Source: Nemertoderma westbladi
Taxonomy: Eukaryota; Animalia; Xenacoelomorpha
Direction: 5' to 3'
DNA: 44,834 bases
NCBI GenBank assembly: GCA_032718475.1
Contig: JAUCBJ010007788.1
Coordinates: 1 to 44,834 of the forward strand
Part shown: in pieces, positions 4,177-40,900 of the stretch
How the letters are laid out: the number at the start of each line of letters is the position of its first letter
Numbering within the stretch: the first letter of the stretch is position 1
The notes under the pieces: model-generated
The model's database searches: none
What the model saw: only the letters and a program-made list of their open reading frames with translations
Told to the model about the DNA's origin: nothing
Program-made: the position numbers and the translations under genes

Positions 4177-4356
4177 AAACAGCTGTAATAATTGACAATA
4201 TGATTGAAATTTAATTAATTATCATTAAAATGGTGTATACAAATTGTCATGTTTTATTATTTTTACGAATTATATATTTCAAGCAGTGTATGCAAATTCT
4301 TATAATTAAAGATGGATTGTAAAATAATATTTTAAATATTTGCTTTGAACTGAATA

Positions 4357-4826
4357 ATGATTACACTTACATCAAGTTATATATTTAACCTTTACATCGC
4401 TGTCTGTATTGCTTCAGACGTTTCTTTGCGACCAGCTTTGGAGAGAAAACAATATGATTCAAACAAAGCACCTCCAAATTTTATAACCTCCAAAGATACC
4501 ATTGACATCAAATTATGGTTTTACAATGTTGCAATGTTAGAAGGAAATCATATGCATATTGGATTTGCAATGACTACGAAATGGTTTGATAATAGACTGG
4601 TTAATGTTTCTAATCAAACAGTAGTATTAGATTATGATGATTTGACAATGATATGGTTACCACGCCTTGAAGTTACAAAAGGAGTTATTGGAAGAGGTGA
4701 AAGTGTCATGACTCCAATTGTCATTGTTTATAAAGATGGCACTGTAATGAATGAAAATTTTAAAGAGTTGAATATCGTTTGTGATTCTACCATTCAATAC
4801 TATCCAAAGGACAGATTGAATTGCAC
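4357..4826 (+). CDS. Cys-loop ligand-gated ion channel subunit, coding exon 1 (extracellular domain)
   Basis: Hydrophobic N-terminus, YD..APP, WFDNRL, IWLP, V.KDGTV and a canonical C-x13-C loop (CDSTIQYYPKDRLNC). Phase-2 donor ac|gtaagt at 4826/4827. Confidence 0.9.
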
Positions 4827-5134
4827 GTAAGTACTCTCAATTTTTCTTACATATAAACTATTTCCAAGATTCCCCTGGAATATTTCCTCACTATATGATA
4901 TGTTTTGGATTTATTATTTTTTACTTTGTGGAGAGCCACAACTTTGCTGAGTTTTTCAAAATTGGCATTAAAAGCAAATAAATAAAGTAAGAAAATATTT
5001 ATTTAATATTTTCAATATATTTATTTCTTAGCCTTTAAAATTTGAACCAGCATGTTTATTCAAGATATTGTAAAAGTTGTTCAGAATTGGAAAAAATGCG
5101 AAAGCACATCATCGGGGATTGAACCAGCGCTATA

Positions 5135-7951: not shown

Positions 7952-10900
7952 TTACGTTATGGAGTCCCTAGATGTTTGAAGGATTAGGGAGGTGGTCGTG
8001 GGAAGAGAATCTTGCCTTCCACAGTTTCCGGAGAGTCCTCCATTCCCTTCCGGTAAACACAAACGACCGACTGGGTGATTGAGTCGCTGCATCCTGAATA
8101 CAATTCCAGGTTTCCTCTTCGTCCTGGAATAGTGACGATAGAAACATCGCTCAAAGTATATGACGGCGTCACAAAGCCGATTCCAGGAGCTATAGTGGTC
8201 CGTCGCTCTCTGCAGGAGAGGTGAGAGTCCCTGCGAGACGTCTGATGTTCCAGAGCTCCAATCGCTCTCTCTGATCTTCATGAAGGATCCACTCGCGGTG
8301 GGGAGGTCCAGATCCACGGCGTCGTCCCTGGCAATATGTAATACCGACAGATCTATCCCGGGTTCAAATAACTCCGCTCCACCCGTCCGGGTTTTAGGTT
8401 TAACTTTCTCCGCTCCCTTGGCTGGTCTAATCTCAGTCGGAGTAAGATGGGGAGGCCATTCATCCTCCTTACTCAGGAAGTCGGGTTCACCTAACCGGTC
8501 TGTAGTATCTGTCAGTTCTTGAGGAGTTGCTCCTCTGGAAGCGATGTCAGTTGGATTAAACTTCTTGGGGCAATATCTCCATTGATCTACATTGGAGCTA
8601 AGATTGTCATTATCTGAGGAGTGTGGTGTTCCCTCAGTTGGGTCGTCTCCCTCACTAGTATCATCTTCCCATTCACTCACCTGGCAGACGCGATCTTGAA
8701 GCAGTCTTTCCCTGAGCGTTCTACGGGAAGGTCCAGTAAGGTACCAACCTACTCTAGTTCTTACCGCATAGGTCTGAAGTGGTTGCGGTTGAGCAGGTCG
8801 TTTCTCTAATGTCTCCAGCGCCTCATGCGCGTTTTGGCCGATGAGTATTTGCACTCCAGGATAATCAGTCTGGAATCGAGGTATGTTAAGATGTTGGATG
8901 CTCTCATCCTCGTCCCAATTATAAAGGTCTGCTTGAGTAGTAGCGAAGTTCTTTATAGCCACCATTTTCACTGACCTTATGCTGTGTTCTCCTAGTTCGT
9001 CTTGTGGGGTGGACAACGCGCCTACATAATAATCAGCTGTTATTGTAGATTTCCAAACTTGCATAATGCCAGACATGTTGAGCTTAGTTTGGAACTTGGG
9101 CTGTCCAGCAAATATATCTTCGGCTAGCTCTTTATCGATGAATGTTCCTGTGCTGCCGGAGTCCAGGAGGGCGTTCACTATATAGCTCTTCTGAGGTCCG
9201 TGGACCCGTAACTGGACTACAGGAAATTCTCGGATCCCTATATTGGAAGTTGGCGCTTTCCAAGATGGTTGTTGATCGGAAGTTGATAAGGTAAGGTCGC
9301 TGTCTGTGTCTTCCTCATGCACGAGTACTCGATACACTGCGGTGGTGTTTATTAGGTAACAGGATTCGTTTTGGTCGGAGAACTCGTCCGTATAGAATCC
9401 TTCCATCTCAGATTGATCAGTGTCGTTCACATCACTGAATTGGACATGTAGTTCGGACTCACTTACCTGACTCGGGCTGTTTCGTTCGAATTCCGTGTGC
9501 AACAAGATATGATGTTTTGCGCCGCACTTTGCACACCTTGCGTCGGAGTTACAGGTTCGCCGTTGGTGTCCTCGTCTGAGGCAATTATAACACAACCGCT
9601 TATCCCACATGACTTCACGTCTATCCTTTAGTGATTTCCTCAGGAATTTATCACACGCATTTAAACGGTGGGGCCCGTCGCACAGCACACATTTCGGCTT
9701 GATGTTACTTACTTTAACCTGTGCTATGTGGTGCACACTTGTTCTTTCCTCGGGCTTTCTCACCTGAATTCTTTTAGGAGACGTAGAAGGGGTTTTTTGT
9801 ACCGGTTCCCTTCTGTCATTGGGTCGAGACTTGGATTTACTTACCTGATCTTTAGGCATTTTATTGACATAATAAGATCTGTCAGTGTCTTTCCCGCTGT
9901 CCTCTCCTTGAGAAGTTTGGCTTTCACCGTCGTCGGTATAACATACTGGTGTTACCCTTCTCCTAGAAACGGGTTTATCACTTACCTTGTTTTCCAATGT
10001 CTTCTCTCTGGACTGTCTTAGGAGCTGTAATTTCACTTCTCCATCTAAGAATGACATGAGATCAGCCATGGTAGGGTCTCGTTGTTGTTGTTCCATCATA
10101 TATAACACCTTCTTGTCCCAGCGTGTACCTACTCCACCCTTGGGCAAAGTAGATGCTAAGGCTCCTACAACCATAGAATTCTGGTATTCATGAGACTTAC
10201 CTAACCAATCTAGTTGTCTACAGATCTCCTGAATCTCATCGGAAAACTCTATAATCCCGCTGCTAAGAAACTTTCGGGGCGCCATTAATTTCGCATATAA
10301 ATACCTAGCTATGTTAGTCCTATTACCATACCTGATGTTTAGTGTATCCCAAACTTGTCTTAATCCATCTGGATGTCCAATAAATTTTAACGCCATTGAC
10401 TTGGGAGATCCTTCCAAGCACTCGATGAGGAATCTAAGTTTCTCTCCATTAGATAGTACAGAGTTCTGTATGTTATCTTTGTAATATTCATTAAAAGGTA
10501 ACCATTTCATCTCATCTCCATTGAACTTGACGATCTCTCCCACCTTCACCGCTTGCCGGGCTTCGGTTCTAGCCATTTGACGCGTAAAACTTTCTTGGGC
10601 CATCGTGTTATTTAATATCGAATTATCGGTATATAAATTTCTCGGATTATGATCAGTTCTATAGGGAATATCATTATCAACAGGTCTATAATTACCCTTA
10701 ATAGGGTTCACTATAGGAGTTTCTACTTCGCTAGCAGTATAAATGCGTGTAGGCTCCACACCTTGCGCATGAGATACTTCAGACCTAACGGGTTGACACA
10801 TTATTACAGGGGGTGGTGGTATACCCTTTTGTAAATTTACTAATTTATCGCGCTCTAGCGCGATATTTTGCTGCACTTCTTGCAACTCTAACTTACTTTC

Positions 10901-12823
10901 CCTCACTGTTCCCTTTAAATGTTGGACAGTCCCTTCCAACTCTCGGACCTGTTGGGAGGAGCGTATCCGATTCTCCTTCATCTCTCCGAGGAGAATATCC
11001 ATCCCCCGCCGTCTCTCGTCTACCCAATCAACCGCCGAAACGGGATCCGCCAACGTCGTAGCGGGCAGACGAGGGACAACGGGCGACAAATTTGGAATAT
11101 TTCGCTCGGGGTCCAGGGCCTGAACTGTCTCCTGGGCAGTTCTACGGGGCACAGGTAGCTTAGTGCTATGCAGAGGGAATTTAGAGGTAGTTTCAGGGAG
11201 CACAGGTGTGTCTATCACCGAAGGGGTGATTTCAAGAACAGGCCTAATTATTTCAGGCTCATCTACTATAGTAGGGAGTCTTTCTATTTTAATTATTTGG
11301 TCTGTGGGCTCTGTACTACCTAAGTTGGTGTTATTTAGTTGCCTTCTAACAGCTGGAGGCAAATCAGGCAATTTCTGACGGTGGAATGTTCTTTTACGTC
11401 TGCTTAGACGAGATCTATTTTCTTTGCCTTCAGTATCGGTGGTATCGCCTTCCTCAGATGATGTATATCCCTGTCTTTTGGGAGTAGATCGATTCATCAT
11501 CTGCATATTACTAGCTGCTAACTGTTTATTTATGCAGTCTTGATTCTCCTGAATGTTTTCCAATTCTAATTGGGTGGTTTCTTCAGCCGCTTTCCGTTCT
11601 GCTTCTGCCACTTTTGCCTCTGCCTCTGCCGCTGCCTCTGCCGCTTTTGCCTCTGCCGCTGCCTCTGCCGCTTTTGCCTTGGCCGCTGCCTCTGCCGCTT
11701 TTGCCTTGGCCGCTGCCGCCTTTCTTTCTGCTTCTGCAGCTACCACTGCTGCTTTCTTTCTGTCTTCTATACGTTTTTTCTTTACTTGTTCTTCTTGGAC
11801 TCGTGTGATGCGGAGTTGTTCATCAAATTTAGCCTGATTCGCAGCCCTCATTTCCACATCGATGGCATCCAACACAAGCTTGGTTCCTTCACTATTAGGG
11901 CTAAGTCCCTCTAACCTTCTCCTCAACTCGTCATCACCTAAAAAACGTTGATAGTCTGACAGATAGATGTCAATGGCATCCCTCTTATGCGGTTTCTCTG
12001 CCGTCGCTTCACTTTCCACTTGGGAAAAAGTAGCGTCTGTTGATTCTCCATGGGTTGAGCGCTCCTCCAGCTGAGCTTTCCACTGAGCTGTTCCTTGAAC
12101 CTGGAGATTCACCCTTTGAAACCAAGTCTTGACGGCGACTTGCAACGACGTGTCTTGTCTTCGTTTAGAAGCCTCCTCAAAGGCCGATAAGATTAGCCTG
12201 ATTCGTAGAATTCTTTCTCTAACTTGATAAAGCAGCAATCCCTGCTCTTGAGGTCCTTGAGGTTGATGAAACAGTTGTTCTTTTAATCGCTCTATAGAGC
12301 TGAAGAATCCCTGTGCGTATCCTGCTGCGGACCTCTTCCACACAGCAGGATCGATGGTTTCCTTGGCTACTCCCATCCGGTGTATGTCTTCCCAGGCAGC
12401 TTCTGATAAATCAAACGGAAGTCCGGGTCCGGGGAAGTTCCATTGCGACTCGACAATAGACTTCAGTTCTTCACTCGTGTATCCCGCATAACTATCTCTA
12501 GTTGAACGCTGGCTTCTCGCCCAATCTATCTGGTGTTCTTCCACAGCGATCAATAACCTAGTGAGTACGGCTGCAGGAAGGATGAGAAGGGGATCTGAAT
12601 AAGCCTCATCCATCATCCTTGCTCCGCGTTCGGGTGTCAGTTCTACCGTATCTTCACTACTGGAGCTGTCGAGCTGCTGAGAAATAAGTTCTTGGCTCAC
12701 GGGTTGTTGCTGCTCCGCTGCTTCTTGGTCCCGCTTGACCTGGGCTCGAGTGCCTATGATAGACCTACGATGCTGGACCAGCCTAGGTTCTGTTATTACT
12801 ACTGGAGGGATGACTTTCCTCAC
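7952..12823 (-). CDS. BEL/Pao LTR-retrotransposon Gag-protease polyprotein lacking RT and integrase
   Basis: Capsid-like region (KFNGDEMKWLPF...EKLRFLIECLEG...RYG), three Zn knuckles (CVLCDGPHRLNAC, CYNCLRRGHQRRTC, CAKCGAKHHILLH) and aspartic protease ALLDSGS. These are followed by the Pao RNase H tail QWRYCPKKFNPTDIASRG. No YxDD or integrase motifs. The first in-frame ATG is at MMDEAYS, so the true start is uncertain. Confidence 0.9.
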   Translation of the reverse strand: MRKVIPPVVITEPRLVQHRRSIIGTRAQVKRDQEAAEQQQPVSQELISQQLDSSSSEDTVELTPERGARMMDEAYSDPLLILPAAVLTRLLIAVEEHQIDWARSQRSTRDSYAGYTSEELKSIVESQWNFPGPGLPFDLSEAAWEDIHRMGVAKETIDPAVWKRSAAGYAQGFFSSIERLKEQLFHQPQGPQEQGLLLYQVRERILRIRLILSAFEEASKRRQDTSLQVAVKTWFQRVNLQVQGTAQWKAQLEERSTHGESTDATFSQVESEATAEKPHKRDAIDIYLSDYQRFLGDDELRRRLEGLSPNSEGTKLVLDAIDVEMRAANQAKFDEQLRITRVQEEQVKKKRIEDRKKAAVVAAEAERKAAAAKAKAAEAAAKAKAAEAAAEAKAAEAAAEAEAKVAEAERKAAEETTQLELENIQENQDCINKQLAASNMQMMNRSTPKRQGYTSSEEGDTTDTEGKENRSRLSRRKRTFHRQKLPDLPPAVRRQLNNTNLGSTEPTDQIIKIERLPTIVDEPEIIRPVLEITPSVIDTPVLPETTSKFPLHSTKLPVPRRTAQETVQALDPERNIPNLSPVVPRLPATTLADPVSAVDWVDERRRGMDILLGEMKENRIRSSQQVRELEGTVQHLKGTVRESKLELQEVQQNIALERDKLVNLQKGIPPPPVIMCQPVRSEVSHAQGVEPTRIYTASEVETPIVNPIKGNYRPVDNDIPYRTDHNPRNLYTDNSILNNTMAQESFTRQMARTEARQAVKVGEIVKFNGDEMKWLPFNEYYKDNIQNSVLSNGEKLRFLIECLEGSPKSMALKFIGHPDGLRQVWDTLNIRYGNRTNIARYLYAKLMAPRKFLSSGIIEFSDEIQEICRQLDWLGKSHEYQNSMVVGALASTLPKGGVGTRWDKKVLYMMEQQQRDPTMADLMSFLDGEVKLQLLRQSREKTLENKVSDKPVSRRRVTPVCYTDDGESQTSQGEDSGKDTDRSYYVNKMPKDQVSKSKSRPNDRREPVQKTPSTSPKRIQVRKPEERTSVHHIAQVKVSNIKPKCVLCDGPHRLNACDKFLRKSLKDRREVMWDKRLCYNCLRRGHQRRTCNSDARCAKCGAKHHILLHTEFERNSPSQVSESELHVQFSDVNDTDQSEMEGFYTDEFSDQNESCYLINTTAVYRVLVHEEDTDSDLTLSTSDQQPSWKAPTSNIGIREFPVVQLRVHGPQKSYIVNALLDSGSTGTFIDKELAEDIFAGQPKFQTKLNMSGIMQVWKSTITADYYVGALSTPQDELGEHSIRSVKMVAIKNFATTQADLYNWDEDESIQHLNIPRFQTDYPGVQILIGQNAHEALETLEKRPAQPQPLQTYAVRTRVGWYLTGPSRRTLRERLLQDRVCQVSEWEDDTSEGDDPTEGTPHSSDNDNLSSNVDQWRYCPKKFNPTDIASRGATPQELTDTTDRLGEPDFLSKEDEWPPHLTPTEIRPAKGAEKVKPKTRTGGAELFEPGIDLSVLHIARDDAVDLDLPTASGSFMKIRESDWSSGTSDVSQGLSPLLQRATDHYSSWNRLCDAVIYFERCFYRHYSRTKRKPGIVFRMQRLNHPVGRLCLPEGNGGLSGNCGRQDSLPTTTSLILQTSRDSIT
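11590..11745 (-). repeat. 27-bp coding minisatellite encoding an Ala-rich (AAEAAAKAK-like) helix
   Basis: Repeated gccgctgcctctgccgcttttgcc(ttg/tct) units inside the BEL ORF. Confidence 0.85.
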
Positions 12824-14312
12824 AGTGGGAGGTGAACTGAACTTACGACCAGACGGTTCTACGTCTCTATCTGAGTCGCAGATAGTTACATCTAATATAC
12901 TGTCTGACAGGTTCTGCTTAGTATCAGATATGTTTATGTATACAGTTGAATGTCTACTGCTGTATTACAGTCTGAGCAAGTCTAGTAACTCAGTATTAAC
13001 TGCTAGCCTAGTAATTAATTACCGATACTGCTACTCAGTGTAGTAGGATATATATATAATATATTAGAACACCGGTATGCTTATGGTATATATAACTATA
13101 TAAGTATTATTACAGACTAGGTTTATCACAGAATACCGGTATAATTTTAGCACAAATATATATAAATATATAATAGGCCTATCGGGAATACCGGTATACA
13201 GTTTACAGTTTGTAGTATATATAATTCTGGACTAGAATTAATTATAAGTACCGGTATAATTTCAGCCTAAATTTATAGAAATAAAGATAATAGGCCTATC
13301 GTAAATACCGGTATATCAATTATTTTAAATAATTGAATTTCTGTATTTTAGGGTTACTTGGTTACTTTACTTACTTTACTACCGTTATTTGAGCAGTAAT
13401 CCAACTGATATTGAGACCTAATGGTTGTATGGTAGGCCTACTATTTATAAATCGTTAGATTTGATTTATAATATATATATACCCGTTTTAATGGGTTTTG
13501 TCAATGTTTGAAATAAATGTTATTATTTCTGGGGGGTAATCACTACACAAAGCGGTGCGCTTTCAATGAAGTGTTACTTATAAGACACTAAAACAAATAA
13601 TTCTAATTTACCTAAGTTACTTAATACTACAAATTACGTACGATTCGGGTTGAGATTACAATCTCTAAATAAACACAAAAATTTACAAAAACACAAAATA
13701 CGAATTTTTAGGGTAATTTTACAAGAAGTCTACAAACCAGCCTAACAAAGGGTTAGAAAACTGGTTATTACAACGGACAGGGTACTACGGTATTTGAAAT
13801 AATAAGTAGTAGTAAGTACACTGCGTTGTCCAGATAGGAAAATACCACCGCCTGACGACCTATAGCCGTATCGCTATAGGTTCTACGTTATGTATCACGG
13901 AGTGTTCCTACCTAGAAGTTAATAGAGCTAATCGAACCACTTCACTATCAACCACTTTACAACACAAATATAATGTCTACACTAATTACTTCGGAAAGTA
14001 CTGTACACTAAACCCTAAATTAGGTACGAGTACTTGTACAACAGATAATCAGTAGTTAAATATACTTGAACAGCTAAAAGAACCACGGCATCTGCTGGAG
14101 TGACCGATGCACAAAATCACCAGTCTTTACCTACGCCAAGCAGCCCGTGTAGTACCGGGGTTAATTTAACTATAGCGGTATGTATAACAAACACAATTAC
14201 TGTAGGAACAAACTTGGGGAATGAATGTTGCGGATAATCGCATAAACTCTGAATAATAAATATTACGCTACGCGTACAAACTACTCAAACAAAATGCAGA
14301 CCAAATACCGAC

Positions 14313-17900: not shown

Positions 17901-18480
17901 CAATGCAGCATGCATTAAGAATGCTATGCATACTTACCGACAAAGTCGCACCACCACAACTCCCTATCCCCCATGACTTTCGGAAGATTATCTGCACCTT
18001 CAAGGCCAGTGTCCTTGAGGAGGCGTGTCTACGAAAGTTATGAGCTGTCCACCATGCTTATTTTCTCCATGGGGCTGCCAAAGCACAAGATTGTGCGTGC
18101 ACAGGCTGATCACACAGCAAAACAATGTCCTGCAAGGCGGAGTCGGCATTGTTCTAGTGTCAATCAATCTTGGGCAAACGAATGAGATACCTCCAATGTT
18201 GTATAGTGTCTGGTTGAAGATGTGTGCATTGTAATCGACACAGTGAACCAGATGTAGCATTCTTGGGAATGTGCCATCCAGAGATTTGGTGTCCTCAGCA
18301 GTTAGAGCCCAGAATGGATTCCCATAGAGGAGTACTGGAACTACTGCTGCTCTAAATAATCGGACCTTAAGTTTCAGATGAATTCTGTGTAAGGCTTTCA
18401 AATCCTGGAAAGGCCATTCAATGCTGTCCACGACTTTCCCTTACATATTCGAAGGTCGTCACCTGACTTCCGGATCCACA
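17901..18480 (-). mobile_element. Degenerate RTE-type LINE 3' fragment
   Basis: LKVRLFRAAVVPVLLYG...W.LT...LDG...ML and LVLWQPHG motifs; homologous to 33375-33650. Confidence 0.85.
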
Positions 18481-18773: not shown

Positions 18774-19670
18774 GGCTATATTGAAAAATATCGAGACATT
18801 AAAAATATCGAGAGTAAAAATAATGTGAGTAAAAATATCGAGTGTTGAAAAATAACGATAATATCGAGAGTTAAAAAAATATCAAGAGCAAAAATATCGA
18901 GAGTAAAAATATCGAGAGTAAAAGTATCGAGTGTTGAAAAATATCGAGAGTAAAAATATCGAGAGTAAAAATATTGAGTATTGAAAAATATCGAGAGTAA
19001 AATTATCGAGTGTTGAAAAATATCTTGTGTTGAAAAATATTGAGTGTTGAAAAATATCAAGAGTAACAATATCGAGCGTAACAATTTTTTTTAATAACGG
19101 TTGCATGATAATTTTTGTCCTAAAAATATTCTAGAACAAAAAAATATGTCCTAAAACAAAAATATTTATCAACATTGGTAGCTTACTAACATATTTCTTA
19201 CTCTATAATATTTATAAAAAGAAGTAGAAAATACTAGCTATTTTAAAAAATTAACAATGTGTTCTAGAACAAAAGCTAGCTAGCTAGCTAGCTCTTCATT
19301 AATAAAATAGCAAAAACTAGCTACTATAATAAATCTGGTAAATGGGTACCTAGGGTGTATTAATGTCATTTATTTGCACTTGCACTGTTGTAACCCATGC
19401 ACTGCAATATTGTCCCATAATTCTAAATAAAATGCTCACGCAAAATGCAATATTTTCTTTCACTCTCATTATTTTTCAACACTCGATATTTTTCAACACT
19501 CGATATTTTTACTCTTGATATTTTTACTCTCAATATTTTTCAACACTCGATATTTTTACTCTCGATATTTTTACTCTCGATAATTTTACTCTCGATATTT
19601 TTCAACATTCGATATTTTCAACACTCTTTATTTTCGATATTTTTCAAGTCTCGATATTTTTCACCATTAC
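18774..19670. mobile_element. Foldback-type MITE (MULE-like) with inverted arrays of 15-17-bp subrepeats
   Basis: Left array aaaaatatcgag(agt/tgttg) at 18780-19090 and the inverted array at 19470-19662. Exact 9-bp TSD ctcattgtc at 18765-18773 and 19671-19679. Confidence 0.85.
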
Positions 19671-23231: not shown

Positions 23232-23578
23232 CAGGGCGAGGCCATTTTGCCCTGAGGGCGTTTTGCCCTGCGGGCGTTTTGCCCTGAGGGCATTTTGCCC
23301 TGAGGGCATTTTGCCCTGAGGGCATTTTGCCCTGAGAGCATTTTGCCCTGATGGCATTTTGCCCTGAGGGCATTTTGCCCTGAGGGCGTTTTGCTGAGGG
23401 CATTTTGCCCTGAGGGCGTTTTGCTGAGGGCATTTTGCCCTGAGGGCATTTTGCCCTGAGGGCATTTTGCCCTGTGGGCATTTTGCCCTGAGGGCGTTTT
23501 GCCCTGAGGGCATTTTGCCCTGAGGGCATTTTGCCCTGAGGGCGTTTTGCCCTGGGGTTATTTTGCCCTGAGGGCGTT
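23232..23578. repeat. Subterminal tandem array of 16-bp palindromic unit tgagggcattttgccc (about 20 copies)
   Basis: Seen directly. A shorter inverted counterpart lies at ~28398-28545. Confidence 0.95.
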
Positions 23579-24533
23579 TAAGGCCTTATGTATATGACAA
23601 CTGGTCAGTCTGCTGCTACCTTGACCAGGAAGAATACCAGTATGGCACTGTCCTACAGTCCTATAGGGTAAAGTCCGGGGTGACCGAATCCGCTAGCGGA
23701 TATTCTGGCCCCTCTCCACAGATTCAGTCCCCCCTTTAAATTATCATTTTACATTATACAGTCAGGCTGTGCTAAACTGCAGTACAGGTACTGCAGTAGC
23801 CTACTGCTTTAAATTATCAGTATCAATATCAGCCTCCCCGGTTCTGTCGCGTTTCGGCAACTGAACAATTACGTTTCACCAACTGCTATAGTTGTATTTC
23901 GGCAACTCGTAGTTGCATTTCGGCGAACTGCAGTCGCGTTTCGGCAACTAGGTCACATACCCTCGTATGTAATGAATGTAACTGTGATTTCACTCATTAT
24001 GTAAGTAAATTATAAATGATGACAAGTTTAAGTTAGTTATAGTTATTGATGGCAGAATTGTTAACTGTTTGAGTTAGTTAGTTAATATTAAATATTTGGA
24101 ACTGGAGTCGGTCTATTTGAATTACAAATCCCGTTTACAATTTCCTTCAGAAATGAAACTGAACAAAACCTAACATATTTTGTTGCTTGTTAAAGGGGCC
24201 TAATGATGCTCACTCAGGCTTACCAGTACAATAATTAAGTTTATAAGGGGATATAGACATCCACTCTGATTTTATGGATCAGACATAATAACAATAATAT
24301 TCGTTTATTGCTGGTTTTGTGTAGGCCTACGGTAATAATCAGTAGTGTTGGAGTAGGCGTGGGTAAACTAATGTAGAACGAAAATGAATAACGGGAAACG
24401 TGAGGCCAAGGTAATAAATCATACTGATTTGCTCTGCCCTATGTGGATACAATGTGATGGTGACGTTGGGCTCAACGCAGGTTCTAACGCTATACTATCA
24501 GTTGCTGAGACGCCATAATACCAACCACCATCA

Positions 24534-26250
24534 GTGTCTAAACCAGAGGCCGTTGTTGATATGAATATAGGTATGCTTCGCTGGAACAATGGTGATGCCA
24601 AATATAAACCTATTTGGGGAAAAAGAGTTAATGTGAGAGTAAGCGAAGCAGCTAAATATACCGATATACTTCCACTCGCTTTAGATACATGGAAAGCATA
24701 CTACCCTGATGACTATGAGATTGACGAGGAGTACCAACTATCTTATGATAGTGGACGGTTAGCTGAATATTTGCCTGGGACGCAAAAGGAATTCACTCTC
24801 AAGGGTTATAAAGATGGTACAGGGAAACAATATAAGAGAATCACACTGTATTTACTCTCAAACTCTTGATGACCCAACAGCAAATGCCAGTAGTAGCTGC
24901 GAACGTGAGGTTTCTCGACCAAGAAGGAAACGAGTCAAGATTGATCGAAATAGTGAAGAAATTCCAGAAATAGTAATTAATGATGAAAGTGTGGGAACTT
25001 CGTGCGAGCCACCCTTCATTTCCGTTTCCGATGAATTTCAGGATCAATTGTCTTGTCTTGAGTATCTTGTTCCTTTGCCAACAACTTTTTTATCAGTTTC
25101 GGAACTCATTCATCGTTTATCAACTTTTGTTGCTGATTCAGGCCAATTCTTTTTAACTGTTAGGAGAGGAGCTCCAATTAGTTGTGTTTTAAGTTTATGG
25201 AGTCGTGAAAGTACGAAATGTTCACCAACAAAAAAATTAATAGTAAAGATGGTAGGAGAGGATGGAATAGACACTGGAGCCATGGCGAAAGAATTTTTAG
25301 AAACGGCTATTACTGGAATTGCGAGCTCCATGTTTCCCAGTGGCTATCCTATAGATTCCATGTCTAATGTACAAAATGGTCACTTCTTCGCTTGTGGCCA
25401 GATAGTTGCAACTAGTTTGGCGCAGGGTGGCCCTGCACCGAGATTTCTTAACAAATCAATGTATGACATTATTGAAAATTCCGACTTCGATATTATGTGT
25501 GTTAAAAGGGAGAAATATTTATCGCCTGAGGATACAAATCTCATTAAAAAATGATAGACACTAACCCGATAATAGATATGACCGATGTTATCATTGACAA
25601 TGGATATACTGCTCCTATACATGTTGAAAACAAGGAGGATATTAAAGGAACTATCATCATTAGTGTACTTACTCGTCGAAAGCTCTATATTAATGAGTTC
25701 TGTAAAGGTTTAGAGTTATTAGGCTTATGGTCTCTAGTAAAGGATAATAAACAAGTATGTGAAGAATTGTTCATTCTTCCCCATTCTGAGAGCAGTGTTA
25801 GCGCGAATTACATTGTATCGATATTGCGCCCTCAGTACTCTGAAAGCTCTACAAGGAAAATTCGTGAAGATGCATTGATTGACTATTTCCAAGACTTTCT
25901 GATGTTGCTAGAGGATTCGACAATATCTGGTTATTCTGAAATCTTAGCAAATTACAGTGAAGGGGAGTATTCTGATGAATATACGAAGCCTGATTTATCA
26001 CCAAGTGGTGTTCTAGGGTGGCTTACAGGCCAGAAACATGTAACCATTAACTAAGGAGTATTTCTACATTACAGTGGCATTCAATCATGATTGCCTCATA
26101 GATAATCCCCAGCATAGTATTTGCTTCCCAGTTGTGGGCGCTTGTGCTCGAATCATAACTTTCCCTGTTTCGCACATGATAAGGCAAGATGATTTTAATA
26201 AACTTCTCCTGTTGGCATTTTGCAAAGGTCAAACATTTGCGTTACATTAG
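24534..26250 (+). pseudogene. Transposon-borne HECT-domain (G2E3-like) gene, frameshifted
   Basis: Consecutive frames 24534-24869, 24814-25554 (GEDGIDTGAMAKEFL; GQIVATSLAQGGPAPRFL) and 25551-26054 (VLGWLTG). A shifted frame then gives FNHDC...CFPVVGACARIITFP...GQTFALH* (stop 26248-26250), containing the HECT catalytic-Cys-like motif. Confidence 0.8.
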
Positions 26251-27137
26251 CTGAGTTGTTATATAGTAACTGCTGTTGTTATTGTGTCCCTTTAGTTGTA
26301 TTAGCAGTATTTCAGTTATTACTGTAGTTGTGTTACTTTAATTCTTAGATGTGTTATTATAGTTGTTGGTTTTTAAATATTTGAATGGTTTTGTTAAAAA
26401 ATTTTCAAAGTTTCTCTCGCCTTAAAATAAATTTTTTTAAGAATAATACAATGTTATATAAAAGTTTGTACCAGTCTCCCGCCTTATAAAGTCACCCGGC
26501 GCATAAAGTTATTCATTTTGCATTGTTTTTTTTGCAGTTTTTTTGTTTTGCATCCAATATTGGTTTATGTAGTTATGCGGCTCTCCAGTTACGTAATAAA
26601 TATTCGAGAACTCTAAATTATTTAACATTGAGTAAGTAAACAATTATTTAACATTCGCTGAGAAAGAATTTGCGTCAAATCCCCCCCCCCCCCCCCCCCC
26701 CTCGTCTCATGAACACATATCTATCCTTCTACTATAATAATATATTGGAATTATCAATTATAAACCATAATTACCAATTATTATAAGGTAACTTATAAGG
26801 TAAACCTCCGGGCTCCGGCTCCGGATGAAATTTTAGCACTGGTGCATCCCTAGTTGATAGAGGTGGAATAAAACTTTTATAATATTATAATACTAAAATA
26901 AATCACCAAGGTAATATACAGTATCTAATAAACTCAAAATAATTGATTGTGATTCACTTGCTACTTGCTTATAATCCAACAAGATGAACCATTTTTTTAT
27001 TTACTGAAGTTTGTGGCGTGGCAGCTCCTACTGATTGCGGTTAAAATAAATAAGAACATACCAAATTAAGTTTAAAGAAGTTATAATAATAGTACCGGTA
27101 CTAGATTATACCATGGTTCGTAAATATTATTCCTAGT

Positions 27138-28299
27138 TTATTCCAGCCCATCATTCGCTATGGACATAAAACGTAGGTAGAAGTCGATACCATCGAGAGG
27201 ATCAGTAGGATCGGGAAGAGATAATCTGTCTTTAACATAATCGAAATACTCTTGATATGTATTTGTATAATTGTTTTTAATGATGCTTTCTTTCCGAAAT
27301 GTGATTCAACTGATTTGCAGTTACTTCAGTCGCGGAATCATTCACCCCTCCACAAGTCAGATAATATAGACTATCAGGTCGTCCATGGACCATAGAATAT
27401 CGGGATTTTCTTATCCAGTGGGTATTCCATGCATGTTTCACAGTATCTAAATCTCTTTGAATTAAAGGGCTAAACGTGTACCACAAGCACTCTTTGCTCA
27501 TGGTTGTCGATGTATCAATAATATCGCGGTATTCTAAATCTGTTTAACATGTTTCGCCACCACATTGATCGATTCCTAGAATAGAAGGACCACCAGCCAT
27601 CTATTCATTGGTTTCTCTGTGACGATACGTACTTATGGGCCGTTGTGGATTCTCTAATATAGGCCTGAATCGCAGCCGCTGTGCCGTTTTCCATTCCCAA
27701 GTCTGTAATTAACTTCATGGGGCATCCATGTTCACTAATAGCTTTGAGGAACATATGAGCTATGTTTTCGGGCGCGTTGTTGGATTGGATGACATTCAAC
27801 CATAGTACTTTCCTACTGTACCCGTCAATACAACCGTGAATGGGGAAACCGAAAGGCTTCAGCTTGTCATAGCCACCATCTATGTGCCAAGCGTAATTTG
27901 GACCGGGGTTGTAATATTGCCTACGTTTCAGTCTATGGCGCTGACGGATCTCGTTTCCTTCGGGGTCTATAGCTCGCAGAAACTCTGCAACCATCTTGGA
28001 ACTCTTAGCCCCTCTAGCTGTAATGTATGCCATATACTCCTGTAACCGCCCAATGAACCTGGCCCTGAAGATACTATCTCGCAAATTCGATCCCACACGA
28101 TTTCCTCTAAGTCCCCTTTGTCAGGATCCCACTTCGCTAGTGAGGAACGCCTTACAAGCCCGTATTCCAGTAGGCGCCTTAACAGAGTACTGTAACTGAT
28201 ATTTATACCAGATAACTTAAGAAATTCTAGAATTTCCTTATAATCAAAGCCACTACTGAAGTAATACCTAATTATATCCTCCTGATTAGTTTCAGACAT
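27138..28299 (-). pseudogene. IS3EU-type integrase-core DDE transposase, frameshifted
   Basis: HTH-like N-terminus (ISYSTLLRRL), GYRSIW, RLKRRQYYNPGPNYAWHIDG.YDKLKPFGFPIHGCIDGYSRKVLWL, TDLGMEN, SSQRNQ and WNTHWIRKS. The C-terminal frame ends ...ANDGLE* at 27138. Confidence 0.88.
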
Positions 28300-29737
28300 T
28301 ATAGGCCAACCACTACCATACCACGGTAATCTGTTAGATAGTAATGGGCAGCAAGGATGGTCATATACATGAGAGCAGTAATATTCCTAATAAATGCGCT
28401 CAGGGCAAAATGCCCTCATGGCAAAATGCCCTCAGGGCAAAATGCCCTCAGAGCAAAATGCCCCCTAATTTTGAAATGACAGGGCAAACTGCCCTCATGG
28501 CAAAATGCCCTCATGGCAAAATGCCCTCAGGGCAAAATGCCCTGATGAATTTTGAAATGGCATGCTTTCTATGGCTTTGTATGAAATTTATTTAATTGCG
28601 TCCAAGTTGTATTAATGTTTTGTCCTTGACAGTTGTGGGCTTCCGTAATAGTACTACTGCCTAGCCTACTTACTGTGTCTATATGTCAAGTCAAAATACG
28701 TGGACAAAATGCTCAGCCCCTGAAGTTGAGCCGGTTATGAAAAACATTATTTCTTTGCAACTAGACGTAACCACACATAGTTTCTTTCTAATTATCCACT
28801 CTTGATTTTTAGTAGTGTAACCACTAAAATGAATTGGAAGTTGCCATTGTTATACAAGGTGTGGTGCAGTAAAATAAAGTTATTAGTGTATGAGAAATGT
28901 ATGGATCGACATAGCATAGATTGAAAGCGAAAATACAAATTCTGACTCACCCAGTAGGGATGAACGAGGTGGAAAGATCTCAGTTTCATATTCCATGCAA
29001 TCTCATTAAGATATGACAGATGTAGATAATTTTTTTCTTTTTGGGGGTGGAGGTCTAAGTCTCTGAATTACGACACAATTATATTGCAGAACATCGTATA
29101 GGTTCGATTTGCTTAAAACAATCAGAAAATTATTTTTATTGAATTTTGTACAATGAAAGATATGCGAAGTTCAGGTATATAATTTCTTCAGCTGAAAGGT
29201 GTGAACCACATAGAAGACTAACGTTCACCAACAACGTTACCTTCTAGTATGTGCACACTGTTAGAAAACCGTCTTTACGCGCTCCACAGCAGGGTCGAAA
29301 ATTATATGGTCGTTGAAATCATTCCTTCACACCTTTCATACCTTTCACACATAGCGAGGAGGGTAATGTAATTTATAATTATGGTGAATATATTACTCTA
29401 TAAACTTTACTACACATGCAATAGGTTTTAATCAATGAAAATTTCATTACATTTTATATGCAAACAATAGATGTATAATTTAATTACAGTTATACACCCT
29501 TGTACTCCTTCAAGGATATACATTATCACTCTCAAATTGTGTTCATGATATGGAAGGAAAATATCAGCGATTTAATCCAACAGCAGCTAAATCATCCCAT
29601 GGAATTTTCTGCCCATTTGAATGTAAATACTTTGTTACTTATACTACTTATATTATGGACCCCTAAAGGGAGATTGTGAAAGATATTTTATTGATATAAA
29701 TAAACTATTTTTTCATTTAAAACAAATTCTTTTTCCA

Positions 29738-32344: not shown

Positions 32345-33283
32345 ATAAAGAACTCGACCTCCGATAACTACATCACTGGACTTAACGAAGCGGCTGATCT
32401 CATCTCCATGGCTGGTTGTATTCACTTATCGTTACTTTCTTTCTCGGTGGAGTCAATCCATGAACTGGTTACAGCTTTAACTAAATTCGTAGTCTTGGAT
32501 AGTTCCTTGGATTCTTGGATAGTCTTGGATGTGCATTTTGGTGAAATTTTGTTAAGAAGATAGGGTTAAGAAAAATTCCGGTTCCGGGTGGATGGAAAAT
32601 ATCGGTTCTGGTGCAGCCCTATAACGGAAATGCCCCCTATAATGTTTTTCTATAATTAATTCAGATTCCAGGCTGGACTTCAAACCTTTGGTTTACTGGA
32701 CGAAATACGAGAAAACAAATGTGCATGGAAACAAGCATATGTGTATTCGCCCCTTGGTGTCACTGCAGAAGTCTCGACACATTTATGATGTCACATATTC
32801 AACAGATCAGAGCAAGCAGCGCAAGGAGAGAAGGATTATGTTGTATTGGTGCGATTTCTTACAGGATTTAGAAGGTAATATAATTGAAATTATTTTTTTA
32901 TTATATTTTTATTATATTTATATTTATCTATTATATTTATATTTATCTATTATATTTATATTTATCTATTATATTTATATTTATTTATCTATTATATTTA
33001 TTTTTTAGAGGGTGAAGTTGGTCCTGAAACTAAGCAGCCTTTGGGACTGGAGGATATGCTGTCTTTTGCAACTGGTGCCGCTACAGTTCCACAGCTGGGC
33101 TTTCCTGTCACACCGACTGTCGAGTTTCCACATGCTGATGATCGAAATGAGTGGTATACCGATCTACCACTCACTAATACGTGTGCCCTTACGTTACAAT
33201 TGCCTGTCATTGAAAACTATGTGAAATTTAAAACAATTATGTTGAGATGCTTGGATATTGTTACTACATTTTCAGCCGATTAG
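32345..33283 (+). pseudogene. Spliced 3' remnant of a second HECT-domain (G2E3-like) gene
   Basis: Exon-like blocks ~32345-32520, ~32665-32874 (FQAGLQTFGLL; IMLYWCDFLQDLE) and 33009-33283 (MLSFATGAATVPQLGF...LPLTNTCALTLQLP). The in-frame GT-AG intron 32875-33008 contains an AT-rich minisatellite. Confidence 0.75.
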
Positions 33284-33374
33284 AATACTGTAAATATTAA
33301 TAATTAAAGTTAAATATAATGGATTAAATCGCTTGGTCAAACCAAGCCTGCTATGATCCAAAATCGAACAAAAT

Positions 33375-33651
33375 CGCCTCCGCTTTGCAGGACATTGCTT
33401 TCGCCGTGAGGACCAGCCAGTGCATAATCTTGTACTTTGGCAGCCTCACGGAGTGAATACGCATGGTGGACAGCCCATGACTTTCTTGAGACGCATCTTA
33501 AAGGACACTGGCCTTAAAGATGCGGATGATCTAGCAAATGTCATGGGTGATAGGGAGTTGTGGCGGTGCAATTTTGTTGACAAGCCGGCACAGCATTCTT
33601 AAAAATGCAGCTGCAATGCAGCATGCCGATCCTAGTAGTAGTAGTAGTAGT
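33375..33651 (+). mobile_element. RTE-type LINE 3' end with (TAG)n tail
   Basis: RLRFAGHCFRR...LVLWQPHG...DRELWR, then a short UTR and tagtagtag tail. Related pieces at ~1099-1135, 6776-6886 and 17901-18480. Confidence 0.88.
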
Positions 33652-33951
33652 GCTATGATCCCTTCTTATTATTCGAATAGAAACATGTATTCCTATATTG
33701 GTCAATAAACGCTGAGTTTCTGAATAAGTATATCCCTTGAAATACGAATCTTCGATTGTAGTACTATAAACTTTATGGTTAGAGTTGTCACCGACATCCA
33801 TAGCAAAACCCAATTACGAAGTAGCCTATCACTGTATCAGCCTATTCCTAAAAGGGATCTAGGGGTCTTAACCTAGAATGATAAAAATAACCTGGTAGTG
33901 TACAAATTTAGGAATCGCGTAATTTTTCTTGAAATTAATATCTCATATCTC

Positions 33952-34004
33952 TCCAAATCACGTACACGTTTCGACCTTACTGGGTCTATCAGCGTGGTGT
34001 CGGA
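33952..34004 (-). ncRNA. Type I hammerhead ribozyme copy 1 (core mutated)
   Basis: Minus strand reads accacg ctgata gacc cagtaa ggtc gaaa cgtgta cgtgat, with one G lost from CUGAUGA. Confidence 0.65.
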
Positions 34005-34361
34005 TTCGAACCTGGGACCTCGAGGTGGAAGCCGAGACTACAACCACTAGGCCACAGGTTCTTGCGATATGGATTATTAATTTCTAAGCCAGCTGCCATT
34101 TTATTAGCCCCTGATTTTTGATTATTGATAGTAAAAAGTGTTGGCAAGCTGTATTTTTCGAGGTGTTTTGTTATTATACATTTATTATAGGAATGGATCT
34201 AGTGGTCTTAACCTCGAATGATAAATTTATTTTACCGAAAATAACGTATCTTTTATTGGCGCAATTGTAGGACTAATCCCATCACATGCGTACTTTATAA
34301 CCGGGTTGTGTACAAATTTAGGAATCGCGTAATTTTTATTGAAATTAATATCTCATATCTC

Positions 34362-34415
34362 TCCAAACCACGTACGCGTTTCGACCTTACTGGGTCTCAT
34401 CAGTGTGGTGTCGGA
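34362..34415 (-). ncRNA. Minimal type I hammerhead ribozyme copy 2
   Basis: Minus strand reads accaca CTGATGA gacc cagtaa ggtc GAAA cgcGTA cgtggt. The core is intact, with one mismatch at the base of stem I. Confidence 0.85.
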
Positions 34416-34724
34416 TTCGAACCTGGGACCTCGAGGTGGAAGCCGAGACTACAACCACTAGGCCACAGGTTCTTGAGATATGGAGTATTAATTTCAAAGC
34501 CAGCTGCCATTTTATTTGTACACTACCCGGTTAAAAAGTATGCATGTGATGGGATTAGTCCTACCAATAAAAGATAAATTATTTTCGGTAAAATAAACTT
34601 ATCATTCGAGGTTAAGACCCCTAGATATCTTCCTATAATAAATGTATAATAACAAGAAAAATAATCAAAAATCAGGGGCTAATAAAATGGCAGCTGGCTT
34701 TGAAATTAATACTCCACATCTAAA

Positions 34725-34791
34725 GAACCTGTGGCCTAGTGGTTGTAGTCTCGGCTTCCACCTCGAGGTCCCAGGTTCGAATCCGACACCA
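34725..34791 (+). ncRNA. tRNA-derived Pol III head (not a functional tRNA)
   Basis: A box TGGCCTAGTGG at 34732-34742, B box GGTTCGAATCC at 34774-34784, cttccac loop, ending ACCA at 34791. The acceptor stem does not pair. Also present in both minus-strand copies. Confidence 0.8.
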
Positions 34792-34835
34792 CGCTGATGA
34801 GACCCAGTAAGGTCGAAACGCGTACATGGTTTGGA
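34782..34835 (+). ncRNA. Minimal type I hammerhead ribozyme copy 3
   Basis: Stem I accacg (34788-93) / catggt (34825-30) and CTGATGA at 34794-34800. Stem II gacc/ggtc, GAAA at 34815-18, palindromic acgcgt stem III. Predicted cleavage after GUA at 34824. Confidence 0.85.
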
Positions 34836-35264
34836 GAGATATGAGGTATTAATTTCAAGAAAAATTACGCGATTCCTAAATTTGTACACTACCCGGTTAT
34901 AAAGTACGCATGTGATCCAATAAAAGATAATGTTATTTTCGGTAAAATAAACTTATCATTCGAGGTTAAGATCCCTTCCTATAATAAATGTATAATAACC
35001 AAACACCTCGAAAAATACAGCTTGCCAACACATTGTTACTATCAATATTCCTAAAAGTACCTATTACAAAAAGGGGCTATTGGTCTGTAAATGACAAAAG
35101 ACAGTGCAGCAGGGATGCAGTTGGATAATGACTAAAAGTCAGTAGGTGTCTGACAGGATAGCTTTTGAGTAACTACTGCTGTAATGATAGATAAAGTCTA
35201 CATTATATGTCCCTCCCTATCTGCTTAAACGGTTAAATGAAATAAAAGTACTTGTACTGTTAGT

Positions 35265-35503
35265 AAAAAAAAAAAGAAAAAAAATTCTTCGGCCACTAGG
35301 CAAGGGATTACGCACAAAGTCTGACGACTTATTTCCAGTGCGGTCCCCCCAGAAATTTACTCCCCAGAGGAAACTCCAGTACTCATTTAGCTACCACTTA
35401 TGGATGCAAGACAGAGATGCGCCCTGGCTGGTCCCTTTAAAGCATTCGTGCCGAAACGAAAACTGCCCTGGCCCATGTGAGGATCGAACCCACGACCTAC
35501 GGG
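35265..35503 (-). mobile_element. tRNA-derived SINE (second family)
   Basis: Minus-strand B box ggttcgatcc, body shared with 2622-2783, T-rich tail. Confidence 0.8.
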
Positions 35504-35671
35504 AGATATGAATTCAATTCAACTACTACACCAAAGTGGAAGAACCCTAGGTCAACAGTACTGCTGCAGTGTGCACTCAGCAGTGCTGTATGGTTTGATA
35601 CAGCGTAAGTGTAGGCCTACAGTATGGGTACCTGTCTTCTGGTTCAAAATTCCCTCCAATAACATATATTA

Positions 35672-35930
35672 ATTAATTATGAGTATTTTTTTAGATAACG
35701 AAAAAAAGAAATACTCCAAATTATTTGTCAGAATAATTAGGTGTATTTTTTTGAAGAAAAAAAAAAGTACAGCTAAATATTTGTGTAAATAATTAGGGTA
35801 TTTTTTTTTAGATAAAGAAAAAAGAAATACTACAAATTATTTGTCTGAATAATTAGGTGTATTTTTTTTGAAGAAAAAAAAGTACAGCTAAATATTTGTC
35901 TAAATAATTAAGTGTACTTTTTTTTAGAAA
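35672..35930. repeat. AT-rich tandem repeat (~117-bp dimeric unit, ~2.3 copies)
   Basis: aataattaggtgtattttttt...gaagaaaaaaaagtacagctaaatatttgt repeated. Confidence 0.8.
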
Positions 35931-36449
35931 AAAAATAAGAATTCAAATGTGGCCGCAATCAGCCACGGTACATGAGGGCCTGCTTAGTAAGCTACTACTA
36001 TTGATTGAATAGATAGGCCCAAACTGCAAAGAAGTATGTTCCTTGCCAATTTTATTTCTATCCCAGACAGTAAGCAAATATCAACTGATAGTTTGCAATG
36101 TATTATTACCCGTCAGCTGAATAGCTCTTCCCAGTGAATCCCACAGGAATATCAATATCCATAACCATAATGTTACTCACTGCTGTGTTAGGTAGGAGGC
36201 GAGCTGATTGAATATTAAGCACTGGGCCGTTCAAATGTTTTATAGGTTAATAATAATGACATGTAGGGGCTGGTATTAGTTTCTCTCAGACTGTTGTGTT
36301 GTGTTGACTGGAGTTGTGTTCCGATTATTTATCTTCTATCTTTTTGTGAAATATCAGTCGCAATACGACTGATATTAAGGTATTTTGTATTTTCTCCAAT
36401 TTATATAGTATTTTTTTGTAACTATGCCTATCATGGAATTATGTACATA

Positions 36450-37961: not shown

Positions 37962-40900
37962 GGGTGCTGCTAAATTCACTCCACAGACTCGACATAAGCT
38001 GAGGGTAAGGTAGAAAGCAGTAACAGCCAATACAATTACAGGAGGCGCTTAGTTGCTAAGATGCACTGTCAAGACAACAGTATAAATAATAACATAAACA
38101 GCTGGGATTAAATAGGCTTGCAGTTACACATCACAGACTGATTGCTTACTTACAGACTGTCTTCTGATAAAGTATTATATTTAGTTATATAGTCATAGTC
38201 TTACGGCATAGTCGGCGTCAATAATTATTGAAATCTGTCGTATTAAAATTTACTTTACGCAGAATATTATGGTTAGAATTTCCATTTCAATGCAGCTATT
38301 TCTAACCAACCTGCCGTATATGTAACGCTGTCGGTATTTTCTCAAAAGCTTGGTATGAACTACTGTATATATTGTACAGTATATGTCCATCTGCCATAAA
38401 TCAGCAGTTCCACGCGCAGTTTCGAGAATTTACATAGTTATAAAGGTCGTAAGTGTAAGTTTGTGAAAAATAGTCTCAGTCAAAACAGGACGAGCGCAAC
38501 GAGGCTTTTAATGAAGACGAGTACTGCGTTTACTATATATAACCCTAAACCGCCTGATATACAGTAGCATATTGAAAGAGTTATCATTTTGTTCAAAACT
38601 GGGAGTGGAATGTTGTAAGCTATATATTTTGATGACAAGATGTACAGGAAGAGCGCAAGGAGTGTTTTAATGAATACGAAAAGTGCGTTGAATATACTCA
38701 TAAACCAGCTGGTTTAGCACTCTGAAGGATAATATATGAATTTGTTCAGAACAGGTGGAATGTTGTAAGATGTATAATTGGTGATCAGATATACAGAACG
38801 AGAGCAATTATGCTTTTTAACCCTTTCGTGCGGGCATATTTTATATATTTGATTATATTTTATAATTAGACCACCCACCCCCCCCCCCTCATTTAGCGTA
38901 CAGTATAATTTATGATGGAACCATATCCCAAAGAGGCAACGTATGTCCCTAAACTAGTATGGTTACGACATAACAGACGACGAGGCCAGTGATTCCCATG
39001 AATCCGAATATTCCGAATCCTCGGATGTGTCAAGTAGTAGTGATAATCTCCCGAAACGGCTTTCACTTCAACATTTGATAGAATAGATACCCGTAACATG
39101 TAAACAAACAACAACGTCCATCCCTGCGCTGTGTTTGATGTCGGGAGAACGTAGCGAGTGGTGTTCGTCCAAGGGATACCAGATACAGATATAGTGTACA
39201 GTATGTCCCCCAAAGCAAGCCCTACATTTTGGAGAACAGCTTTGCATTTGAGGCATATCATAATGTAGGCCCTAGCCTACACTCTACAGTATCTTAGACT
39301 TCAGTCATTCCTCCTCTAGGAACCACTCCCGTCCACTCACGGACCCAACGCAGGCACAAAGACAACGGCTCTTCGCCGTCCCCGTCGACCAGGAGAAGGG
39401 CAACAGGCACGTACATGACGTTGCCCTTCACAACCAGCAAATTCAGCGTCAGGTTGAACCTGGTTGTCTTGTACGTCCCGTCAAGCAGTACGCACATGTC
39501 GCCGTAGCGATGCAACAACTGGACTCCCTGACGCGGAACTACTGCCATGGCGAGATGCTGGCCATCCGCCGGGTACCGGACCTGCACGAAGCAGCCCCGA
39601 TTCCGGTAGTGGTCCACCAAACTCGCCAACTGGGCGACATCATGAGCCTCCGTACTCGGGGTCCCGACGTCTCGCCGATGCCTTTGGACCATGTTGCTGA
39701 GGTCCTTTTGTGTCATGAAGTACATGTAAAAGCATAATATAAAGTAAATTTTACAGACTGAAAAATTAACCAATTTATTAATTAAGCAATTAAAGGACAT
39801 TACACATTATATATATATAACTATAACTAATAAACCATAAAAAATAATATGAAAAACTATAAAATTAAATAATAGCTAAAAGGTATGTCAATTTAATAAC
39901 GTAAATAAATTTTTGTGATCAGCGTAATCAGCTCTGTCTAAATTACTATAGTGTATTTTTATCGTCTCAACTCTCTATCACTACCTGTATACAAATTATC
40001 ATTTGTTTGACTACCAAATAACGTTGGTAAAACTAAATATAAAAAAAATATATAGAGGTATACTTCAAACAATAACGATAGGCCTGCCACCAACAATACC
40101 AACCGCCTAGAGCTCAAGTCCGGCATCTCTGCAAGACGCGTGTCCGACACCATTCCCTCCACGAAGACCTCGTTGGCTCGGCGTAGTGCGGGAATGGAGT
40201 AAAACCCAGCAGCAACTTGCGACTTCATGTAGGCCATGACATCATCCGTAGTCCGCTGGAATGGACGGGCCGCATCACCGACTAAGTGGGCGGCGTGGGA
40301 ATGTACGTCGGGGACCATAACCCAGTAGACTGTTAGGCCCCCAACATCGCCATAGTGGCACTCCCCGGTGGCAGAACCAAGACGAAGGACCTCCTTGACG
40401 TCACTGGCAGCCTTCCTCTTCATTCTGCTGGTGGGGTTGCCACCAACAGCAAAGTCGGGGAACGCAACAACTTTCTTGATTGCAATCTCCGACTTACATT
40501 CCCCCTTCATCGTATTATTCCTGACGCCGGCCTAAGGAATGCAATGCAAACATAATGAAATAAAACTAAGTTGACTCAATAATAAAGATAAAATTACTAT
40601 CTATTATATCAAAAAAGAATAAACAATGCATTGCGTGAGTCGAGCAAGCTATATTATTATAAATTATTAAAATTTGAGAATAATATTCAAGGATGTGTTT
40701 AAATCAATCACAGTGAGCAGTATTCATTGAGGTTTGTATAGCAAACCACTCTGTACCGTACACGTGTATCGTGTCCGTGTATCTGGTACATGTATTGTAT
40801 ATCACCTAATCACCATAAATATATGTGTCATAGGCCTACAAAGTAAGATTTAGTAGAAATATTTTACCGGTACTAATAAATAGTACTACTAATAGTTCGT

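Follow-up and report, generated by a model that had tools for sequence, protein, structure and literature searches.

A polymorphic insertion of a hammerhead-bearing 411-bp repeat with a tRNA-like head in Nemertoderma westbladi, probably a non-LTR retrozyme of the Sm-alpha type

In the stretch of Nemertoderma westbladi DNA analyzed here (contig JAUCBJ010007788.1, 44,834 nt, referred to as the window), positions 33855-35045 hold a polymorphic insertion built from a high-copy, often tandem, non-coding 411-bp repeat, in which a tRNA-like head is followed by a hammerhead ribozyme. The insertion is likely (probability about 0.7) a non-LTR retrozyme of the type represented by Sm-alpha in schistosomes, i.e., an element that would be transcribed from A and B boxes in its head, processed by paired hammerheads and inserted by a Penelope-type reverse transcriptase. 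In the available text of earlier studies, both the mode of transcription and the inserting enzyme of animal retrozymes are still inferred (PMC7761336, PMC7229834, bioRxiv 10.64898/2026.07.22.740005). The present family has a candidate internal promoter, and the locus offers a clean view before and after an insertion with a Penelope-like layout, which makes both questions testable.

Structure and polymorphism of the insertion

A preliminary description of this DNA had placed three units of head and hammerhead in the region, and these were found again, two on the minus strand (copies A and B) and one on the plus strand (copy C), together with a partial fourth piece, D. Beyond that description, the whole span proves to be one insertion that contains an inversion and is flanked by a 12-bp target-site duplication; its parts are as follows:

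33843..33854, plus strand: left copy of the 12-bp target-site duplication, same letters as 35046-35057, single in the empty allele
33855..35045, no strand assigned: the complete insertion, its two arms arranged head to head with both 3' ends of the element outward
33855..34105, minus strand: copy A, a monomer truncated at the 3' side and shortened by an internal deletion of 70 nt; its hammerhead (33957-33998) is without the G of CUGAUGA
34106..34516, minus strand: copy B, a complete monomer of 411 bp in circularly permuted form, in tandem with A
34514..34516, no strand assigned: inversion junction, a 3-nt overlap of the two arms
34514..34652, plus strand: piece D, the 3' portion of a monomer, joined to copy C through a deletion
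34661..35045, plus strand: copy C, a near-full monomer with deletions of 21 nt and 8 nt
35046..35057, plus strand: right copy of the target-site duplication, identical to 33843-33854

The duplicated target, TATTCCTAAAAG, occurs twice in the whole window, i.e., only at the two borders of the insertion. Two DNA sequencing runs, denoted X1 (possibly the source sample) and X3, were available for comparison. One X3 contig (record 10) fuses 33651-33842 straight to 35046-35257, which is an exact empty site with the 12-bp sequence present once, and an X1 contig (record 5) begins at 35046 in the register of the empty site, while the filled junction is found in X3 record 11 and X1 record 4. Because the contigs hold both the filled junction and the exact empty site, the insertion is real and polymorphic, with some chromosomes filled and others empty; an assembly artefact was ruled out as its source, since independent contigs show both types of junction.

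Between the empty and filled haplotypes, 4 of 192 letters differ in the left flank (33651-33842), and the right flank (35046-35257, about 210 bp) has 14 differing letters as well as gaps; the strong difference on the right suggests high heterozygosity. Copy B departs from the family majority at 8 of 411 positions and by small indels. Because the flank haplotypes differ and copy B has diverged in this way, there is no need to assume a very recent insertion, and the damage to its ribozymes would fit neutral decay.

The units of the A-B tandem are spaced by 410-411 bp, and a monomer length of 411 nt follows from a 441-nt contig in another run (X4) that closes on itself with a 30-nt overlap (411 + 30). 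This contig was rejected as a candidate RNA circle; the RNA nature of X4 is a guess, the run is labeled as another organism and it also carries two repeats that neighbor the insertion, so that it may hold trace DNA. A search of sequencing runs returned no RNA run among those listed, and an exact pattern for the family had 0 matches in metagenome contigs. The monomer has a GC content of 0.38. No coding capacity was found in 33855-35045, where one 110-codon antisense frame spans the junction by chance. The length, the lack of an open reading frame and the exact empty site all support the non-coding mobile element with a monomer of about 410 nt that had been proposed initially.

On a single monomer, 2,703 contigs were placed in X1 and 999 in X3, and head-to-tail joints between monomers are present in both runs. 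The summed contig depth is 1e5-8e5 for the monomer vs 16-50 for the flank, a difference of three to four orders of magnitude that is not itself a copy number; allowing for 31-mer overlap, the family would comprise at least hundreds of copies. Polymorphisms at a frequency of at least 2% are too few to gauge conservation of the core within the species, and all (34210, 34450 and indels at 34166 and 34332) lie outside the ribozyme.

Ribozyme, tRNA-like head and predicted fold

The RNA-level motifs of copies B and C are located as follows:

34367..34409, minus strand: copy B hammerhead, type I, with cleavage predicted after 34373 and a private mismatch at 34404, Rfam RF00163 at 23.3 bits
34413..34472, minus strand: putative tRNA-derived head of copy B, with the A box at 34465-34455 and the B box at 34423-34413
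34700..34858, plus strand: predicted 22-23 bp long-range helix enclosing head and hammerhead, arms 34700-34721 and 34837-34858 (inverted repeats I22, I25)
34725..34784, plus strand: putative tRNA-derived head of copy C, with the A box at 34732-34742 and the B box at 34774-34784, folding as a hairpin rather than a cloverleaf
34788..34830, plus strand: copy C hammerhead, type I, with cleavage predicted after 34824 and a private mismatch at 34826

A pattern made of the 26-nt core and stem II matches the window twice, vs 0.00 times in 100 shuffles. The Rfam type I model, Hammerhead_1, matched at 34367-34409, at a score that lies below the gathering score of 34; HH9 scored 22.6 bits (E 0.001) on a 161-nt stretch, likewise below gathering. 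Under standard hammerhead numbering, the predicted cut falls after GUA at 34824, exactly where it had been placed before.

All three local ribozymes have defects: copy C has a mismatch in helix I, copy B has one in the pair that closes the core, and in copy A the palindrome is broken in addition to the missing G. The hammerhead string quoted originally is thus exact in 0 of 3 copies, but it does represent the family majority, where the pairing letter at 34404 accounts for more than 99% of the summed contig depth in the two DNA runs and the pairing letter at 34826 is dominant in X1. Unlike the damaged local copies, the family-majority ribozyme is intact. It was rightly recognized as a type I hammerhead with a palindromic helix III, but its assignment to the minimal Penelope type was rejected. 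The Penelope ribozymes have a helix II of 7-8 bp, a helix I of 4-5 bp and an extra base before position 10.1 (PMC4209133, in its available portion), whereas here helix I is 6 bp, helix II is 4 bp, helix III is a short palindrome and the extra base is absent. Judged by these features, the ribozyme is a canonical metazoan type I hammerhead as Cervera and de la Pena use the term (PMC4209133).

Three contigs of a further run, X7, are divergent homologues of the monomer. Over the ribozyme and B box (34350-34429) at most 1 of 80 positions sets this relative apart from the majority, as compared with 9 of 35 in the head (34430-34464; Fisher p 8e-5, for boundaries chosen after the fact), and the body between does not align with the majority monomer. 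Preferential conservation of the ribozyme core, on which the original proposal had been staked, is therefore seen across species, and these few sequences support apparent selection on the hammerhead.

The two boxes of the head were called from the usual A- and B-box consensus sequences. In all three copies, which account for all 3 B boxes of the window, the A box lies 42 nt upstream of the B box; shuffling the monomer 20,000 times gave 0 such pairs. Among phage sequences, the 20 top matches listed for the head are tRNA-Gly, the first of them being weak (85% over 40 nt, E 0.05), and the X7 relatives have TTC at the anticodon position, so that the head may descend from tRNA-Gly or tRNA-Glu. The head is not a tRNA gene: ARAGORN reported 0 tRNAs, Rfam gave no tRNA match and the sequence folds as a hairpin instead of a cloverleaf with an acceptor stem. 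The head is thus not a foldable tRNA. The letters ACCA, previously read as the tRNA-type end of the head, start helix I of the hammerhead and, in standard tRNA numbering, lie 7 nt nearer the T-loop than in a tRNA. Runs of T are scarce on the sense strand (1 vs 8), a difference that is not significant at fixed composition (p ~0.55), and the only T4 of the monomer is found at +134 from the cut.

The majority monomer, computed from copy B, was folded as a circle. It reaches -101.7 kcal/mol (z -4.2, 0 of 100 shuffles as stable); the antisense circle also folds well (-104.9). Pair probabilities in the circular fold are 0.76-0.97 for helix I, 0.99-1.0 for helix II, 0.87-1.0 for an extension of helix I that is contributed by the 3' half of the B box and 0.8-1.0 for the enclosing helix, the 5' arm of which lies upstream of any Pol III start. 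The head hairpin forms in the same fold, where it is hung on a three-way junction, and both halves of the B box are paired in helices. A transcript running from the tRNA +1 position to the T4 forms helix I with a probability of only 0.4-0.5. For two ribozymes, the co-fold of lowest energy is a dimer with a 6-bp helix III (-42.7 vs -34.4 for two monomers). The hammerhead helices are accordingly modeled as forming in both the circle and the dimer, and the circle is predicted to leave the hammerhead able to form.

Relation to known elements, proposed mechanism and alternatives

As far as its sequence goes, the monomer combines the properties by which non-LTR retrozymes are recognized (PMC7229834) with the layout of Sm-alpha. 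Like metazoan non-LTR retrozymes, in the text available for them, it forms tandem units within the range of 150-450 bp that carry a type I hammerhead (PMC7229834, PMC7761336), has neither an open reading frame nor an LTR, has a GC content below 50% and is flanked by a duplication of more than 4 bp (PMC7229834); a self-paired circle is a further shared property, predicted in the present case (PMC7229834; bioRxiv 10.64898/2026.07.22.740005). The sequence criteria for this class also include the absence of PBS and PPT (PMC7229834, PMC7761336). The A and B boxes set the repeat apart, as the accessible parts of these sources do not describe them for the coral, mussel and axolotl units. The combination of promoter and hammerhead is already known from schistosomes, and Sm-alpha, which had been named initially as a precedent for a Pol III head with a hammerhead, proved an apt one (PMC6765202). 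Sm-alpha and Sj-alpha of Schistosoma carry a canonical type I hammerhead behind a promoter derived from a tRNA and are likewise of high copy number and tandem (PMC6765202, PMC2770079, PMC8490949); tandem copies are needed there because cutting leaves the promoter at the 3' end of the monomer. In the portions of these papers that were available, the schistosome elements differ in unit length (~335 bp vs 411 bp here) and in a tRNA-Gln-like rather than tRNA-Gly/Glu-like head, and in the present family the head is refolded inside the long helix of the ribozyme. The likeness described here is one of layout.

A literature search found neither a description of this monomer family nor a tRNA-headed hammerhead element outside schistosomes; Repbase/Dfam, subscription journals and supplements lay outside that search, and supplements may list the family. 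The comparison suggests that the Sm-alpha design may recur beyond blood flukes.

With Penelope-like elements and their pLTR hammerheads the locus shares a head-to-head inverted insert, a short duplication, partial tandems and an AT-rich target (PMC4209133, PMC3846280, PMC8557442, PMC11167929), as well as a type I hammerhead with a palindromic helix III (PMC4209133); it differs in having no open reading frame and a canonical ribozyme rather than the minimal one. Within the 44,834-nt window, no Penelope element or homology to a Penelope terminus was found.

In the mechanism that we consider likely, the A and B boxes of an upstream copy would start Pol III transcription, which would read through the single T4 into the next copy. 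Cleavage after GUA by the predicted paired hammerheads would then free a 411-nt unit that carries the promoter at its 3' end, as is the case for the cut monomer of Sm-alpha (PMC6765202). A host ligase may circularize this unit, a closure that is shown for other retrozymes (PMC7229834). A Penelope-type protein would nick both strands of the AT-rich target 12 bp apart, one nick per arm, and its reverse transcriptase would copy multimeric or circular RNA, priming each arm at preferred internal RNA sites, which would yield the head-to-head insert. Published accounts, as available, describe head-to-head inverted inserts with duplications of 8-10 bp as typical of Penelope elements (PMC3846280; PMC8557442), and a Penelope protein that extends both target strands and starts within the RNA at AT-rich DNA, with hammerhead cleavage being dispensable for insertion in vitro (PMC11167929). 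The dispensability of cleavage counts against the proposed route, as do the Xenopus retrozyme dimers, of which 1 of 9 cleaved and 8 of 9 failed (bioRxiv 10.64898/2026.07.22.740005, in the part available). The damage to all three local ribozymes, the Rfam scores below gathering, the negative tRNA results from ARAGORN and Rfam, the weak tRNA-Gly match and the outcome for T runs weigh in the same direction.

The insertion ends at about +177 and +248 from the cut, in both cases past the only T4, and its copies also carry sequence from upstream of the head. Because the ends match neither the cut nor a Pol III start or stop, they point to a read-through or circular RNA as the template. The rare letter at 34297, common to copies B and C and absent from D, favors a multimeric template over a single circle, or later conversion. 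Other copies of the family have loose ends as well. Among the 14 loose-end rows listed out of 397, those with the best support put 3' ends of other copies near 34122 (31 and 17 contigs) and at 34181-34204 (7, 4 and 6 contigs), not far from the two ends of the present insertion, and 0 of the 14 lie at the cut or at the head.

A more far-reaching and, at present, doubtful reading is that the Pol III promoter and the hammerhead constitute one fused RNA module, such that the family would name Pol III as the polymerase and a Penelope enzyme as the mobilizer. The B box would then supply the extension of helix I, and only read-through or circular RNA would fold properly because the enclosing helix uses sequence upstream of the start site. 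If this holds, both the polymerase and the mobilizer would be identified for animal retrozymes outside schistosomes.

The predicted fold also bears on an explanation that we regard as unlikely, i.e., that the head is a passenger, a tRNA fragment that the 5' arm of the long ribozyme helix took up and that is retained for folding, with transcription by any polymerase reading through from neighboring promoters. Such a role would suit a hairpin on a three-way junction with both B-box halves paired, and because the B box also provides helix sequence, it could be conserved for reasons other than promoter use. The A box shows no clear constraint in X7, with 2 listed changes in 11 positions per copy vs 7 in 25 in the spacer; however, these changes fall at degenerate positions of the consensus, and 3 of 3 copies keep the two boxes intact and at the spacing of a tRNA. 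In the available literature, read-through by Pol I, II or III is considered for retrozymes (PMC7761336), whereas Sm-alpha, which has the same layout, is reported to use Pol III (PMC6765202).

The head-to-head layout with a short duplication is seen at one locus and is not exclusive to Penelope. L1-type twin priming likewise yields inversions with duplications. An ordinary tRNA-derived SINE, moved by an abundant RTE-like LINE and inverted in this manner, with the hammerhead as a relic, is less probable still. The 3' end of a very abundant LINE-like element (33366-33650, depth ~2e6) lies only 200 bp away, both insertion ends display short microhomology (2-3 nt adjacent, 7 of 12 overall) and, as in tRNA-derived SINEs, the A and B boxes are at tRNA spacing. 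On the other hand, the monomer has no similarity to the LINE tail at 33366-33650, no A-rich or microsatellite tail was found on the insertion, the ends are not at the head, the tandem monomers carry sequence upstream of it and the ribozyme is conserved across species. A classical tRNA SINE, by contrast, would have its 5' end at the head and a LINE-related or A-rich 3' tail. Least probable, and very unlikely, is a satellite-type DNA that spread by DNA recombination, with the RNA motifs irrelevant to mobility. The tandem organization would agree with this, and DNA arrays alone could yield the closed 441-nt contig, but the exact empty site, the 12-bp duplication and the two outward 3' ends indicate target-primed insertion, and the helices are conserved at the RNA level.

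Neighboring repeats and tRNA-associated hammerheads elsewhere

Other repeats were noted in the window. The LINE-like 3' end at 33366-33650 (plus strand) ends in a (TAG)n tail and has a summed depth of ~2e6 in X1; we take the element to be RTE-like, a Pfam search on it gave no match, and a related frame is found at 18000-18440 (minus strand). A second high-copy repeat at 35300-35500 has a B-box-like motif on the minus strand and is probably another SINE family. At 7952-12964 (minus strand), downstream of a ligand-gated ion-channel exon at 4354-4830, a 1,670-codon frame contains DUF1759, presumably the gag region of a BEL/Pao-type element. Frames with an integrase core (rva_4; minus strand) and HECT-domain fragments (plus strand) occupy 24519-28386 and 32888-33283 and are likely transposon-borne; the last HECT-domain fragment is split by an AT-rich microsatellite. 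For a gene fragment near the insertion, a search for homologs gave 0 matches. A MULE transposase-like fragment (E 0.001) lies at 39294-39806 (minus strand), and short tandem arrays, inverted or paired, at 18784-19660, 23238-23579, 28392-28559 and 35670-35941 resemble repeat-bearing ends of non-autonomous DNA transposons.

A generic pattern of a B box followed by a hammerhead matched 12 viral and 35 metagenome loci (L001-L047), 0 of 47 being similar to the monomer. In this set, which the pattern itself selected for the pairing of tRNA and hammerhead and in which redundancy was kept, 15 of 47 matches passed a three-stem test, several of them in phage tRNA clusters. In these viral and metagenome contigs, a well-formed type I hammerhead often lies within 10-20 nt downstream of an intact tRNA gene (e.g., L047:949-1090, L037:952-1090, L044, L029 and L017), and hammerheads in this position could serve to process tRNA 3' trailers.
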